Positions 13,040 to 16,948 of a stretch of DNA of 64,000 nucleotides are shown one piece after another; position 1 is the first letter of the stretch, and every line of letters begins with the position of its first letter. The DNA lies in the IMG/VR virus record IMGVR_UViG_3300037088_000361, positions 63,844-127,843 of that record, one strand, 5' to 3'. The stretch is from a virus. The notes under the pieces are model-generated. The model did no database searches, was not told the origin of the DNA, and saw nothing but the letters and a program-made list of their open reading frames with translations. A program made the translations under genes and the position numbers.

Positions 13040-13126
13040 AAAATCCTCCTACTTAGGAGATGGTAGTCAAAAAATAATCAAATTTTTTAACTTTTGGTGG
13101 TATTATATAGAAGTAGGGAGATTGTC

Positions 13127-13237
13127 ATGAATATGGCCACTCACATCACTCTAGGCGACATTGAAGCAGTAGGTATAGCCGAAGCCGCCGTCGTGTGTGA
13201 GGGAGGCGATACGTCGCCTTCGGGAGGGTTGGGATAG
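13127..13237 (+). CDS. 36-aa leader peptide of the tRNA array (MNMATHITLGDIEAVGIAEAAVVCEGGDTSPSGGLG)
   Basis: TATTAT -10 at 13101, AGGGAG RBS at 13115, ATG 13127, TAG 13235; overlaps the attenuator strands. Confidence 0.75.
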   Translation: MNMATHITLGDIEAVGIAEAAVVCEGGDTSPSGGLG

Positions 13238-13295
13238 AAAATCCTAATTTTGAATCCCGAAGGCACCTAGAAAGCTTAGGTGCCATTTTTGTTTT
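13202..13295 (+). promoter_or_regulatory. transcription attenuator (1:2 / 2:3 / 3:4 hairpins)
   Basis: 1:2 GGAGGCGA-TACG-TCGCCTTC (13202-13221); 2:3 GCCTTCGGGA (13216-13225) with TCCCGAAGGC (13255-13264); 3:4 is the terminator. Confidence 0.75.
13262..13295 (+). terminator. intrinsic terminator in front of the first tRNA
   Basis: GGCACCTA-GAAAGCT-TAGGTGCC followed by ATTTTTGTTTT. Confidence 0.85.
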
Positions 13296-13306
13296 ACAGC
13301 ACATTT

Positions 13307-13384
13307 GTTCCGGTGCGGCGAGTGGCTAAGCCAGTTGCCTTACAAGCAACCAATTCGGGGGTTCGAGTCCCTCCCGGAACACCA
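13307..13384 (+). tRNA. tRNA-Val(TAC)
   Basis: Acceptor GTTCCGG/CCGGAAC-A-CCA; anticodon arm GTTGC-CTTACAA-GCAAC; GTTCGAG T-loop. Confidence 0.85.
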
Positions 13385-13395
13385 AAATTGGATAT

Positions 13396-13473
13396 GCCCC
13401 GATAGCTTAGTGGCTTCAAAGCGCCACCTTCACACGATGGAGAACACAGGTTCGAGTCCTGTTCGGGGCACCA
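13396..13473 (+). tRNA. tRNA-Val(CAC)
   Basis: GCCCCGA/TCGGGGC-A-CCA; loop TTCACAC; one mismatch in the anticodon stem. Confidence 0.8.
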
Positions 13474-13480
13474 AGTAAGT

Positions 13481-13528
13481 CCGCTGAGGTCCAGCGGCAG
13501 GACACCGGCTCTGACACGCCGGTCAACG
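13481..13528 (+). pseudogene. 5' part of a tRNA-Val(GAC)-like gene
   Basis: D-arm GTCC-AGCGGCA-GGAC and arm CCGGC-TCTGACAC-GCCGG present; no T-arm or matching 3' acceptor strand. Confidence 0.5.
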
Positions 13529-13567
13529 TAAACAGGGGCTGCGACAATGCCCCCACAAGATTTAAGT

Positions 13568-13701
13568 CTTGCCTTGTGGCGGCGAAAGCCGCAGCAGCCT
13601 GTGGAAAGGCTGTAAATAGAGAGGCATCCAAGACTGGCTCGTCCCGTTCGATTCGGGATATAGTGTCTCTGGGGAATAGTAGGCCAGTCCACAAGGCGAG
13701 T
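13568..13701 (+). ncRNA. unidentified structured RNA with possible pseudoknot
   Basis: Closing stem GCCTTGTGG/CCACAAGGC; GCGGC-GAAA-GCCGC; crossing pairs AGAGGCAT/GTGTCTCT and GACTGGC/GCCAGTC. Confidence 0.55.
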
Positions 13702-13707
13702 TTTTTA

Positions 13708-13785
13708 GCGGGAATAGCTCAGTTGGTAGAGCGCAACCTTGCCAAGGTTGAGGTTTCACGGGTTCGAACCCCGTTTCCCGCTCCA
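13708..13785 (+). tRNA. tRNA-Gly(GCC)
   Basis: GCGGGAA...CAACC-TTGCCAA-GGTTG...TTCCCGC-T-CCA. Confidence 0.95.
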
Positions 13786-13790
13786 AGTTT

Positions 13791-13866
13791 GGGCCTGTAG
13801 CTCATTTGGCAGAGCGCCTGTTTTGCAAGCAGGAGGCGAAGGGTTCAAATCCCTTTAGGTCCACCA
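13791..13866 (+). tRNA. tRNA-Ala(TGC)
   Basis: GGGCCTG/TAGGTCC-A-CCA with G3-U70; loop TTTGCAA. Confidence 0.93.
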
Positions 13867-13870
13867 AGTT

Positions 13871-14410
13871 TTAGGCATACTTAGACATTCCTCGTGATTG
13901 TCTTCCGTTGCCTTTGTTACGACCGCAGAAAGTTGGAGTTTGGCTGGTGCAGTTAGGGCATAATAGACGTACATTGTTTGGTTTGCTGTCTCCAGCGTTT
14001 CCATCTATGTGGTCTACAACCATGGTGATGGGTTTGTCGCACCAAATAGGAGGAAGTCCACAGATTTCACATCTGTTTCCTCTTTTTTCAATGAGGATGT
14101 TACGGATGGTGCTCCTTTTGGTTACTTGACCTAACTCAAACCTTTTTACGGCCTGAGAGTAGAGCGACCCCCTACTTACCGGCTTAGGTTTCTTTGGTCT
14201 TTTGGTGTTTGTTATCGTTGCAGAGCACGAGCTAGAGCAGTAAATGTTTGTAAAGCGTTTATTGTATGAAATAGGTTCTTGACAGCATAAACATCTTTTA
14301 GGGTTGAGCAGGTACCTAGCCTCATTTTTAGCTGTTCTGCTTACATTACTGCAAGATAGGGAACAGTAAGTGTATCTGGTTTCTCTTTTGCAGATTAAGC
14401 AGTTATTCAT
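13871..14410 (-). CDS. HNH homing endonuclease inserted in the tRNA array
   Basis: YCSxSC repeats; CEICG...DHIDGN...NVRLLCPNC. Confidence 0.88.
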   Translation of the reverse strand: MNNCLICKRETRYTYCSLSCSNVSRTAKNEARYLLNPKRCLCCQEPISYNKRFTNIYCSSSCSATITNTKRPKKPKPVSRGSLYSQAVKRFELGQVTKRSTIRNILIEKRGNRCEICGLPPIWCDKPITMVVDHIDGNAGDSKPNNVRLLCPNCTSQTPTFCGRNKGNGRQSRGMSKYA

Positions 14411-14420
14411 GCAGTTTTTG

Positions 14421-15220: not shown

Positions 15221-15228
15221 AGAGTTTA

Positions 15229-15305
15229 GGGTATGTGGAGCAGTTGGAGTGCTCGCCACTCTGTCACAGTGGAGACCGGGGGTTCGAGTCCCCTCATACC
15301 CGCCA
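15229..15305 (+). tRNA. tRNA-Asp(GTC)
   Basis: GGGTATG/CATACCC-G-CCA; CCACT-CTGTCAC-AGTGG. Confidence 0.93.
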
Positions 15306-15313
15306 TTTGAAAT

Positions 15314-15385
15314 GTGCCCATAACTCAGCGGTAGAGTGCCATCTTGACAGGGTGGAGGCGGTAGGTTCGACTCCTACTGGGCGCA
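15314..15385 (+). tRNA. tRNA-Val(GAC), CCA not encoded
   Basis: GTGCCCA/TGGGCGC-A; CCATC-TTGACAG-GGTGG. Confidence 0.88.
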
Positions 15386-15430
15386 CATTGATAGACTTTT
15401 GAGTATCTATATAAGAGGTGCTCAGGGTCT

Positions 15431-16060
15431 ATGCTCTATACGGTCTACAAGACGACTAACCTTGCCAACGGCAAGTACTACTTTGGCGTCCACAAGACCG
15501 ATAACCCAAATGATGACTATCTTGGGTCGGGGAAGTATATTAAAGCTGCTATAGCCAAACACGGTGAGGCGGCCCTTAAGAAAGAGGTTTTGTTTATCTA
15601 CCTCGACGCTGAATCAGCGTTTGGTAAGGAAGATGAGCTAATCCAAACTTGGCGTGGTCGAGACCCACTGTGTATGAACTTGAGGAAGGGTGGCTCAGGT
15701 GGGTTTGACTGGATAAATAAAAAGCTCAATCAAGAATGGAGAAAGAGGGCAGCACAGACAACAAATATCCACATCTTCAAACGTCGGGAATCGGATATTG
15801 AGTATAAGAACTTGGATGTTGCTCGTAGGAGAAGAAATTTTCTGTCCCTTTCTAGCGAATGGTATAAACAACGGGGGATGGCGGTTGCTAAAATAGGATG
15901 TGCAGCAGCGGCAAAAGTGAATTTCAAAGCGCAAGAACATGAGCTAGTTTTAAAATTATATAAGCAAGGAATCTCGAAAAGTCAGATAGTTCGTCAAGTT
16001 GGCGTTGCAAAAAGCTCTGTTTTCTTGTGGATTAAACAAGCTTTGTTTTTGGGCGTGTAG
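15431..16060 (+). CDS. GIY-YIG (Seg-like) homing endonuclease with C-terminal HTH
   Basis: YTVYKTTN...YYFGVH...DDYLGSG; stop codon lies inside tRNA-Ala(CGC). Confidence 0.87.
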   Translation: MLYTVYKTTNLANGKYYFGVHKTDNPNDDYLGSGKYIKAAIAKHGEAALKKEVLFIYLDAESAFGKEDELIQTWRGRDPLCMNLRKGGSGGFDWINKKLNQEWRKRAAQTTNIHIFKRRESDIEYKNLDVARRRRNFLSLSSEWYKQRGMAVAKIGCAAAAKVNFKAQEHELVLKLYKQGISKSQIVRQVGVAKSSVFLWIKQALFLGV

Positions 16061-16126
16061 CTCATCCGGGAGAGTGCAGCTTTCGCAAGGCTGAGGCGGT
16101 GGGTTCGAGTCCCATTACGTCCACCA
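16051..16126 (+). tRNA. tRNA-Ala(CGC)
   Basis: GGGCGTG/TACGTCC-A-CCA with G3-U70; CAGCT-TTCGCAA-GGCTG. Confidence 0.9.
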
Positions 16127-16133
16127 AATTCGT

Positions 16134-16207
16134 GGCCCGTTCGTCTAGGGGTAGGACGGCAGATTCTCAATCTGCAAACAGGGGTTCAATTCCCCTACGG
16201 GCTACCA
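16134..16207 (+). tRNA. tRNA-Glu(CTC)
   Basis: GGCCCGT/ACGGGCT-A-CCA; GCAGA-TTCTCAA-TCTGC. Confidence 0.92.
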
Positions 16208-16257
16208 AGTTTCAACCCCCGCCATGCTAGGGGGAACACTGCATGACGGGAGGATAG

Positions 16258-16509
16258 ATGTTTACACTGTGGCATTGGTTTTTGAATTTCTTTTTTTGGC
16301 TGGTAAACTTGGTAATTTGGGTGATAAAAAACCCGGATGCCTTATTTACTTGGTTTTCCAAATGGGTAGTAATCGGGTGGATGGTGGTTCACACTATTCA
16401 CTGGGCACGAGTGGAATACGTGAGGCTTTCCATTTCCACCGAGAGAAAGATTGCCAAGATTCGCCAGCCAGTGGACCCGAGTAAGGAGTCGGCTGAGGAA
16501 GAAGAGTAG
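16258..16509 (+). CDS. small Trp-rich membrane protein
   Basis: GGAGGA RBS; two hydrophobic segments; acidic tail. Confidence 0.6.
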   Translation: MFTLWHWFLNFFFWLVNLVIWVIKNPDALFTWFSKWVVIGWMVVHTIHWARVEYVRLSISTERKIAKIRQPVDPSKESAEEEE

Positions 16510-16689
16510 GTATGAAAACGTGCTCTGCTTGCGGATTTAAGGGACGGTGGTTGACCCATTTCTGTCCTGGACCCCCCGGACACGGGATTACTGACCTTGG
16601 GAACGGTTATATTTCCGTCGAGACTTTTCCCCTCTATCCGGCACAGGTGGTTGACCTTTCTGAAGCCAAGGAGCGAGATTTTAAGATTA

Positions 16690-16766
16690 GCACGGATACC
16701 CAAGCGGCCAAAGGGGATGGTCTGCAAAACCATTAGTCGTCAGTTCAAATCTGACTCCGTGCTCCA
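16690..16766 (+). tRNA. tRNA-Cys(GCA)
   Basis: GCACGGA/TCCGTGC-T-CCA; ATGGT-CTGCAAA-ACCAT. Confidence 0.9.
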
Positions 16767-16773
16767 ATTTTAT

Positions 16774-16848
16774 GGCCTCATCGTCTAGCGGCTAGGACGG
16801 CAGACTTTCAATCTGCAAAGGAGAGTTCGACTCTCTCTGGGGCTACCA
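16774..16848 (+). tRNA. tRNA-Glu(TTC)
   Basis: GGCCTCA/TGGGGCT-A-CCA; GCAGA-CTTTCAA-TCTGC. Confidence 0.92.
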
Positions 16849-16853
16849 AATAT

Positions 16854-16948
16854 GGCGGACAGCACAGGCGTGCAGGCGGGTCCTATAAACCTGAAGTCGC
16901 CCTAGATAGGGGTGTCCGGCGTGGGTTCGAGTCCCCGGTCCGCTACCA
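16854..16948 (+). tRNA. atypical tRNA with TAT (UAU) anticodon and long variable arm
   Basis: GGCGGAC/GTCCGCT-A-CCA; D-arm GCAC-AGGC-GTGC; loop CCTATAA; long variable arm; bulged T-stem. Confidence 0.7.

Follow-up and report, generated by a model that had tools for sequence, protein, structure and literature searches.

A 64,000-nucleotide (nt) stretch of viral DNA, positions 63,844 to 127,843 of IMG/VR record IMGVR_UViG_3300037088_000361 and hereafter called the window, comes from a giant soil phage and carries an array of phage transfer RNA (tRNA) genes that is preceded by a short leader open reading frame (ORF) and an intrinsic terminator. We conclude that this leader is probably a ribosome-mediated, leader-peptide transcription attenuator that gates the tRNA operon. 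Such an attenuator had been proposed in an earlier note on the window, and the interpretation is supported because two tests set beforehand, conservation of the element and co-variation between leader and array, are both positive. The parent virus record has 127,843 bases (CheckV completeness 41%, GC content 52%), of which the window forms the right half; the genome is referred to below as G000.

The 267 bases that separate a leftward Endonuclease-VII/HNH gene from the first tRNA gene hold all parts of the element, readable on the plus strand. A promoter-like motif at 13098-13111 comprises an extended −10 sequence, TG-n-TATTAT (13098-13106), whose hexamer falls within GTATTATATAGA (13100-13111); judged from sequence, it would act as the promoter. 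Sites of the form GTATTATA number only 6 in the 127,843-base contig. A Shine-Dalgarno-like GGGAG (13116-13120) stands 6 nt 5′ of the ATG at 13127 that opens the leader ORF (13127-13237), which has 36 codons, ends with TAG at 13235-13237, encodes the peptide MNMATHITLGDIEAVGIAEAAVVCEGGDTSPSGGLG and is nested in a 47-amino-acid (aa) TTG ORF of the ORF list (13094-13237). The intrinsic terminator (13262-13295) consists of a hairpin (13262-13284) of 9 base pairs (bp), 5 of them G-C, with a 5-nt loop, followed by ATTTTTGTTTT to 13295. The −10 box, ribosome-binding site (RBS) and 36-codon ORF ahead of a terminator, as originally described, are all present at 13098-13295. The terminator does precede the first tRNA gene, tRNA-Val(UAC) at 13307, as had been said; the gap between them is 11 nt and not 12 nt, and is too short for any promoter.

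The array behind the leader (13307-16848, plus strand) encodes Val(UAC, CAC, GAC), Gly(GCC, UCC, CCC), Ala(UGC, GGC, CGC), Asp(GUC), Glu(CUC, UUC) and Cys(GCA). ARAGORN and Rfam concur on these 13 tRNAs, which cover all codons beginning with G (GNN) plus Cys. The leader is written largely in the same codons. A recount of its codons 10-28 reproduced 16 GNN codons out of 19, the remainder being ATT, ATA and TGT, and Val, Ala, Gly, Asp, Glu and Cys make up 21 of the 35 residues after Met (p = 0.0017). Anticodon CGC (codon GCG) is, by a hand check, the sole one of the 13 ARAGORN types without a Watson-Crick codon in the leader. The description of the array as GNN readers with Cys(GCA), and of GCG as the only codon missing from the leader, is thereby borne out for these 13 types, while a fourteenth, a UAU tRNA, was called by neither program and is unconfirmed. 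The array is indeed the phage's own, as had been stated, but is only part of its tRNA set: a separate Thr/Gln cluster lies on the same contig, and a second Gly(CCC) at 17788 follows a transfer-messenger RNA (tmRNA) at 17075-17438.

The segment 13110-13306 has a fold of −66.2 kcal/mol, more stable than any of 200 shuffles (z = −3.08). Between 12000 and 18500, a lenient scan found 7 terminator-like sites against 6.9 expected from shuffles, which is no excess. Under stringent settings, the whole 127,843-base contig holds 10 sites only, three of which follow, at 10-40 nt, the end of an ATG ORF of 15-60 codons; since just these three have a suitable ORF and two of them are tRNA-array leaders, the look-elsewhere cost is small.

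The three pairings proposed for the leader RNA were all found. Hairpin 1:2 (13202-13221; GGAGGCGA-UACG-UCGCCUUC) has 8 bp, spans codons 26-32 and is a candidate anti-antiterminator or pause hairpin. Strand 2 of the putative antiterminator (13216-13225; GCCUUCGGGA) is a perfect 10-bp complement of strand 3 (13255-13264; UCCCGAAGGC), and the last 3 bases of strand 3 form the base of the terminator stem, so that helix 2:3 and the terminator share 13262-13264. A further hairpin, P2 (13227-13249), holds the stop codon TAG in its loop and is enclosed by the 2:3 helix.

Conservation was examined by peptide alignment and by a DNA pattern, over viral and metagenome collections. A protein search with the 47-aa ORF gave four proteins of 35-36 aa with 84-100% identity, these being all of the candidates, and no Pfam domain is recorded for them. 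Seven viral loci and four metagenome stretches, together with the window, yielded four distinct DNA versions from related giant phages; these homologues were located via the peptide or an invariant RNA segment, an ascertainment that favours intact elements. All four versions keep GTATTATATAGA (unchanged across all 8 aligned loci), a purine-rich RBS, the ATG, the frame, the TAG, the terminator with its T-run and the adjoining tRNA-Val(UAC). The reading frame survives a 15-nt in-frame indel as well as numerous changes in the 5′ half, and the 3′ half of the ORF is unchanged even at third codon positions. From GTGTGTGAGGGAGGCGATAC to CTTCGGG the RNA is invariant save for the last loop base of hairpin 1:2, as would be expected for strands that serve two alternative pairings.

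The RNAalifold consensus of the four versions is the antiterminated fold, with 2:3 enclosing P2. Nine of the 10 consensus pairs of 2:3 are kept in all four versions, the tenth being broken in one sequence (C-A, in the window), and one pair changes from U-A to U-G. The ORF and the 2:3 pairing, for which conservation at homologous loci had been predicted, are both retained in this way. Covariation is seen in two helices: in P2, three pairs are altered on both sides with pairing retained, and in the terminator, the stems GGCACCTAG, GGCGCTC and GGCGGCT come with matching 3′ arms, four positions being altered on both sides as read from the alignment. Beyond the terminator, the relatives share Val(UAC), Val(CAC), Gly(GCC) and Ala(UGC) in this order, and the gene order of the array is largely common to them.

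Other searches added no further version. The DNA-pattern scan gave four metagenome stretches, all identical to known versions, and of 517 stretches of metagenome contigs picked up by the peptide pattern, none was confirmed. Queried as exact strings, the window's two 10-mers matched unrelated coding sequence only, and a search with the T-arm of tRNA-Val found no matches. In a phage collection, megablast and blastn turned up only a tRNA-Gly match to Tunturiibacter phage Tunturi_5 (PP885688.1) and a chance match to a crAss-like phage, and no homologue of the leader. An Ntn-hydrolase-like neighbour gene led to one relative, with no tRNA array nearby.

The decisive evidence for the proposed attenuator comes from a relative with several arrays. 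Genome G002 (316,945 bases, 99% complete) has 62 tRNA hits in four clusters, A to D, of which C corresponds to the array of the window. Each of the four has its own promoter motif, ATG mini-ORF and hairpin with T-run. Against a background of the amino-acid frequencies of 104 long ORFs of the window's genome, each leader is enriched in the amino acids of the array that it precedes: 18 of 29 residues for array A (Tyr, Leu, Ser; leader MKNLSSNSLSSLSYSSSLLSGLVLPDGWDG; p = 9e-7), 22 of 28 for array B (His, Arg, Asn, Lys, Phe, Met, Pro, Gln(CUG), Trp; leader MRNRKPNPMQWQPKRHFSRPSFGGLPFAP; p = 1.2e-6), 17 of 30 for array C (GNN plus Cys; leader MKTAITNPVDLIEAVAAVCEGGDTSPSGGLG; p = 0.01) and 10 of 23 for array D (Ile, Thr, Gln(UUG); leader MLTITMPHTQTQTTISSGGGACLA; p = 0.002). 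None of the 12 off-diagonal combinations of leader and array is enriched (p ≥ 0.55), and most fall under expectation. The true assignment of leaders to arrays ranks first among the 24 permutations in G002 and first in all four genomes scored.

In the window's genome, a leader D (MMNITMPHTQTQTQIWAGGGACSG) and terminator lie ahead of the Thr/Gln array, on the minus strand and outside the window, and a third genome, G003, likewise has leader D and a terminator ahead of its D array. The leaders of the other arrays are non-homologous, each being matched to its own tRNA set. The promoter motif, often preceded by GACTACCGG, stands before leaders A, C and D of G002 and before array D of G000 and G003; before the G002 arrays it often takes the form GACTACCGGTGGTATTATAT, and leader B of G002 is preceded by a variant, GTATTATG, as read from the sequence. 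Other leaders of the lineage have GAGA or GGAG-like purine tracts 6-8 nt 5′ of the ATG.

The match is specific to the translated frame. In 11 of 11 leaders, the own-array match is highest in frame 0, far above the other two frames; for the window leader the counts are 21/35 versus 8/34 and 8/34, and for leader B of G002, 22/28 versus 7/27 and 8/27. The Cys tRNAs of G002 are in the GNN array, whose leader has a Cys codon while leader A has none, and across phages Cys codons mostly accompany the Cys tRNA, with two strays elsewhere. In G002, Gln is encoded by CAG in leader B, before the array with Gln-CUG, and by CAA in leader D, before the array with Gln-UUG, a split that is suggestive. Allowing for wobble, the anticodons of the own array are all touched by the four leaders (9/9, 16/16, 13/13 and 5/5), and the same is true of many redraws.

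Tunturi_5 groups its tRNAs unlike G002, and its three leaders track its own grouping, with an assignment rank of 1 among 6. Leader T1 (MKTLCLSSYCLSSSLSLSDGWDLRTGRDADMI) precedes Leu, Cys, Tyr and Ser tRNAs and matches them at 16 of 31 residues; leader T2 (MQHVSTFRFAVPATAGNPAGQQGTNACDTGGGKVVKW) precedes Asn (with a query), Gln, Gly(GCC), Thr, Pro, His, Ala and Phe and matches 25 of 36; and leader T3 (MKQILKQLGHDFDIRGKRGVVVDTWDITIRGERKWSDVRDMRVLRERPV, annotated gp308) precedes Trp, Asp, Met, Lys, Val, Arg, Glu, Ile and Gly(UCC) and matches 37 of 48. In this phage the Cys tRNA is in the Leu/Ser/Tyr array, and two Cys codons are in that leader. The co-variation of leader and array across related phages, which had been put forward as a check, is borne out at the amino-acid level in G002, G000, G003 and Tunturi_5. 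In the Caulobacter phage phiCbK, annotated terminators precede three tRNA blocks. Its gp083, before a Pro-Lys-Leu-Ser block, has these four amino acids at 23 of 44 residues and a stop 68 nt before the terminator, and the ORFs before the Phe-Val-Ile-Gln and Glu-Asp blocks match at 10 of 31 and 3 of 19; these are hand counts without phiCbK background statistics, and the leader-array match in phiCbK is suggestive only.

These observations can be joined in a mechanism that would run as follows. Transcription would begin at the conserved extended −10 promoter, and a ribosome would load on the 36-codon leader and read the Gly, Asp, Glu, Ala, Val and Cys codons that the downstream tRNAs serve. If transit is fast, a ribosome in the 3′ tail of the ORF would cover strand 2 (13216-13225) and prevent the antiterminator; the terminator at 13262-13295 would then form, and transcription would end 11 nt before the first tRNA gene. 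If decoding is slow, with the tRNAs scarce, cleaved or uncharged, the ribosome would lag around codons 20-27, masking strand 1 and freeing strand 2, and the 2:3 helix would hold the base of the terminator stem while RNA polymerase enters the array. Across the lineage there would be one sensor per tRNA array, written in the amino acids of that array, and together these would provide modular feedback on tRNA supply. The trigger could be an anticodon-nuclease defence, and a general shortage of tRNAs or simple feedback on their supply would fit just as well.

The geometry of the leaders fits this order of events. In all 12 leaders, the array-matched codons sit upstream of the segment that pairs with the 5′ arm of the terminator, and the best partner of that arm starts 6-13 codons before the end of the ORF; in 9 of the 12, the duplex is better than at least 93% of shuffles. 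Ribosome-mask folding, an equilibrium partition function with a 29-nt masked footprint, agrees with this order for leaders A and B of G002 and leader D of G000, with a terminator probability of about 0-0.4 when the A site is on the control codons and of 0.97-0.99 when it is in the tail. For some other leaders, folding predicts no strong 1:2 hairpin. For the window leader, folding puts 2:3 occupancy at 0.2-0.4 while the ribosome is far upstream and hairpin 1:2 competes, at 0.6-0.98 once the A site is at codons 20-27 (Ala Ala Val Val Cys Glu Gly Gly), and at 0.00 for an A site at codon 29 onward. A stall near codons 20-27 is thus predicted to favour 2:3, as had been proposed; for the accompanying loss of the terminator the model is equivocal.

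It is here that several points weigh against an attenuator in the window. The full terminator has an equilibrium probability of about 0.9 or higher at most ribosome positions, because 2:3 and the terminator contest only three G-C pairs, the bottom 3 bp of the stem. Its dips at codons 22-23 and 25-26 shift with the assumed footprint, and leaders C and D of G002 also respond weakly. The base of a terminator stem, beside the U-tract, must form for RNA release, and the switch is still plausible on this kinetic argument, since the contested pairs are that base; the folding models of the window switch are equivocal.

Other reservations concern the comparative evidence. There are only four distinct versions of the window leader, and hairpin 1:2 and helix 2:3 are invariant, hence without covariation support. 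Given the peptide, synonymous codon choice covers the anticodons no better than chance (p = 0.16-0.71), and one codon per tRNA is for this reason demonstrated at the amino-acid level only. Leader D of G000 and of G003 mixes CAA and CAG. The leaders include out-of-array residues (Thr, Ile, Leu, Asn and His in C; Met-Pro-His in D), and both Tunturi_5 T2 and the tail of G002 leader D contain Cys codons without a match. For T2 the start is ambiguous, and an upstream ATG would give a weak 29/53 (hand count). A gene of about 115 aa lies between the array D terminator and the first tRNA, and the reach of leader D may extend beyond tRNAs. Distal tRNAs may be driven independently by promoter motifs and homing-endonuclease genes within the arrays. 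Finally, all of the support is computational.

Transcript data bear on these questions to a small extent. In four wetland metatranscriptome runs, the query-word shares were only 0.05-0.09. Two RNA-library contigs of relatives, from two studies (X1 record 1 and X3 record 13), connect the leader ORF, through a diverged terminator, with the tRNAs. Such contigs carry no strand, end or expression information, and their uncovered parts are uninformative; they fit read-through transcripts weakly, and a further point against the attenuator reading is that they could be contaminating DNA.

Among other explanations, the one that survives best accepts a translated, array-matched leader with reversed or non-classical polarity: fast translation would promote read-through, as in pyrBI, or the ORF would shield the RNA from Rho or nucleases, confining tRNA production to times of working translation. 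The untranslated RNAs of G002 A and G000 D are predicted to be antiterminated (terminator probability 0.00 and 0.08 with no ribosome), unlike trp, and the equivocal equilibrium models of the window leave room for this polarity. The position of the stop codon speaks against it. Across all 12 leaders, 21-31 nt separate the stop from the downstream terminator stem, and because this gap exceeds the roughly 13-15 nt that a ribosome covers downstream, a terminating ribosome cannot melt the terminator directly. A ribosome in the tail instead covers the strand that pairs with the terminator 5′ arm, which favours termination, and a mere Rho shield would have no need of array-specific codons. We regard reversed polarity as improbable.

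It is more doubtful still that the leader is a small protein gene with its own terminator, whose peptide is functional, while the tRNAs arise from constitutive leakage and the likeness to the array is a compositional coincidence or a by-product of G-rich RNA. The peptide is conserved, the window leader taken alone is modestly enriched (21/35), and the invariant third positions of the 3′ half indicate that much of the conservation is at the RNA level. The coincidence, however, must recur in non-homologous leaders, four in G002, two in G000, two in G003 and three in Tunturi_5, and each time with the own array and in the translated frame only; the missing Pfam domain of the homologues also counts against a protein gene. 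Equally slim is the chance of a translation-independent RNA sensor, binding tRNAs through displayed codons in the manner of a T-box, or binding a phage protein, to switch the terminator: the RNA structure is strong and conserved, and in leaders A, B and D the ORF is preceded by a long structured stretch of 120-180 nt, but 13000-13306 matches no T-box or other cis-regulatory family at E up to 1, the ATG, purine-rich RBS and frame are conserved through an in-frame indel, and direct codon display does not require a frame-specific match.

A ribosome-mediated attenuator at this locus would belong to a familiar class. Multivalent leader attenuators of enterobacterial amino-acid operons include those of ilvGMEDA (Ile/Val/Leu) and thr (Thr/Ile), and other members of the class are trpL, hisL, leuL and pheL. 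The window leader resembles ilvGMEDA and thr in its promoter, its short ORF of regulatory codons, its alternative 2:3 and 3:4 pairings with a candidate 1:2 hairpin and its terminator before the regulated genes, and in the sensing of several amino acids by a single leader. The architecture of the class, as the earlier note held, is present here as ORF, matched codons, terminator and antiterminator, and the comparative tests are positive. The element differs from the attenuators of amino-acid operons in that it would regulate tRNAs and not biosynthetic enzymes, that what it would sense is most plausibly the tRNA pool, that up to nine or ten amino acids are represented by one to few codons each and not by runs of a single codon, and that it is phage-encoded, with one element per array. 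To our knowledge, the genes regulated by all known attenuators of the class are amino-acid biosynthesis, transport or synthetase genes; here the first downstream gene is tRNA-Val, which departs from that usual pattern. No cis-regulatory or amino-acid leader family of Rfam matches the leader region, and the T-box model RF00230 has no match in 13000-17100 at E up to 1 nor in the whole window at the gathering score.

Closer in function are attenuators of synthetase genes. The pheST leader is one such attenuator. In bacilli, a His leader before hisS/hisZ is a leader-peptide attenuator of a synthetase gene, according to PMC2965389, which describes leader-peptide systems in general. Both cases resemble the proposed window attenuator in placing part of the translation machinery for the sensed amino acid under ribosome-mediated attenuation. 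They differ in that they belong to cellular genomes and that what they control is one amino acid's synthetase and not several tRNA genes. T-box riboswitches are alike in that tRNA status is sensed by a terminator/antiterminator switch before translation-related genes; in contrast, they bind uncharged tRNA directly, without translation, whereas here the ORF, ATG and frame are conserved.

The nearest published case that we found is the trn L-array of Anabaena sp. PCC 7120, under TrcR and responsive to translational stress; in the text available from PMC8421152 and PMC10272220, TrcR binds direct repeats with which the −10 box overlaps. That array is likewise a horizontally mobile, supernumerary tRNA array, described there as silent and induced when translation is impaired. 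It differs in its promoter-level control by a repressor, with no codon-specific sensing in the portions available. The retrieved text of the two papers contains neither 'attenuat' nor 'terminator', and lacks 'leader' (PMC8421152) or 'leader peptide' (PMC10272220); in that of the Tunturi paper (PMC11924767), the words 'attenuat', 'leader' and 'terminator' are absent. The earlier note knew of no attenuator described for a phage tRNA array, and a full-text literature search, with subscription journals largely outside its reach, likewise found no leader-peptide attenuator described before tRNA genes.

Leader-peptide attenuation has thus so far been found described only for amino-acid and synthetase genes, and here its logic would control phage tRNA genes. 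If this is true, these tRNA genes would be the first whose expression depends on how fast their own codons are decoded, so that tRNA supply feeds back on itself directly, and the grouping of phage tRNAs into arrays would have a functional reason. It would suggest a way for phages to set the timing or dose of tRNA replacement when the host is shut off or anticodon nucleases attack, would provide ready-made codon-specific sensors of tRNA availability, and would explain many small 'hypothetical proteins' beside tRNA genes, such as Tunturi_5 gp308 and phiCbK gp083. Tunturi_5 is in culture with its host (PMC11924767), and the idea is directly testable there.

We lean, with less confidence, towards a broader view. 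Giant phages may run a modular homeostat of the tRNA pool, in which each operon is gated by its own leader sampling its amino acids, perhaps every anticodon, and in which the transit time of the ribosome sums tRNA availability and sets read-through; this would recur in unrelated lineages, in phages of Acidobacteriota and, more weakly, in Caulobacter phage phiCbK. Under this view, a phage could replace host tRNAs at just the moment when host shut-off or tRNA-cleaving defences deplete them. The giant phages studied here have near-complete tRNA sets, arrayed by amino-acid or codon class (the class II tRNAs with long arms; the GNN row; Ile/Thr/Gln), and sensors that work per array may shape this sorting.

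Leaders A, B and D have a further feature, 120-180 nt of structured RNA from the promoter motif to the mini-ORF, with several hairpins of GNRA or UUCG type (G002 loci L023 1444-1577, L024 about 1365-1555 and L025 1022-1221; G000 contig about 12679-12518 on the minus strand, outside the window). In leader C the mini-ORF follows the promoter motif at a distance of only about 20 nt. Behind leader D, an ORF of about 115-120 aa that begins MAKFEQHC is conserved in three genomes (L025 1363-1710; G000 about 12381-12019, minus strand; L027 1757-2124) and would be co-regulated with the Ile/Thr/Gln array. Also on the minus strand of the G000 contig and outside the window, a CCA-ended tRNA-like sequence at about 11366-11445, with a GAU-type anticodon loop, adjoins Thr(CGU); ARAGORN does not call it, the base before its anticodon is odd, and its position is that of tRNA-Ile(GAU) in G002 and G003. 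At about 10400-10345 on the same strand, a hairpin with ATTTTTTGTTTT lies in the direction of the tRNAs after an antisense endonuclease-like gene, about 80-110 nt before the Gln tRNAs, with no ATG ORF upstream.

The window array is flanked and interrupted by other genes. The flanking Endonuclease-VII/HNH gene (12650-13039, minus strand) matches Pfam PF02945 (E = 4.8e-17), an HNH gene (13871-14410, minus strand) is inserted within the array, and an ORF at 15431-16060 on the plus strand, also within it, has Pfam helix-turn-helix (HTH) hits only and is GIY-YIG-like by our own reading. The arrays of relatives carry other insertions at other sites, and this points to mobile homing-endonuclease genes within the tRNA clusters; T4 segB is reportedly a homing endonuclease gene in a tRNA cluster.

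Inside the array, at 14734-14772, another terminator-like hairpin with CAAATTTTTG stops about 2 nt short of tRNA-Ala(GGC), with no obvious leader ORF upstream. Long non-tRNA spacers at 13474-13707, 14849-15228 and 16208-16689, in which CCA-ended tRNA-like units had been placed earlier, have sub-threshold Rfam matches only. Behind the last of the 13 tRNAs, a tRNA-like element of uncertain status (16853-16948, plus strand) has a long variable arm, a CCUAUAA anticodon loop and a cloverleaf fold. It has no ARAGORN call and no match to the Rfam tRNA model, only one to tRNA-Sec (23.6 bits, E = 0.2), and aligns poorly to relatives; an ATA codon is present in all four versions of leader C. Further on, a TTGACA-N16-TATTAT promoter (11 of 12 matches) precedes the phage tmRNA, the two together spanning 16958-17438; the tag of this tmRNA is AEPLSMYAMA, and that of the relatives is ATAQYAFA.

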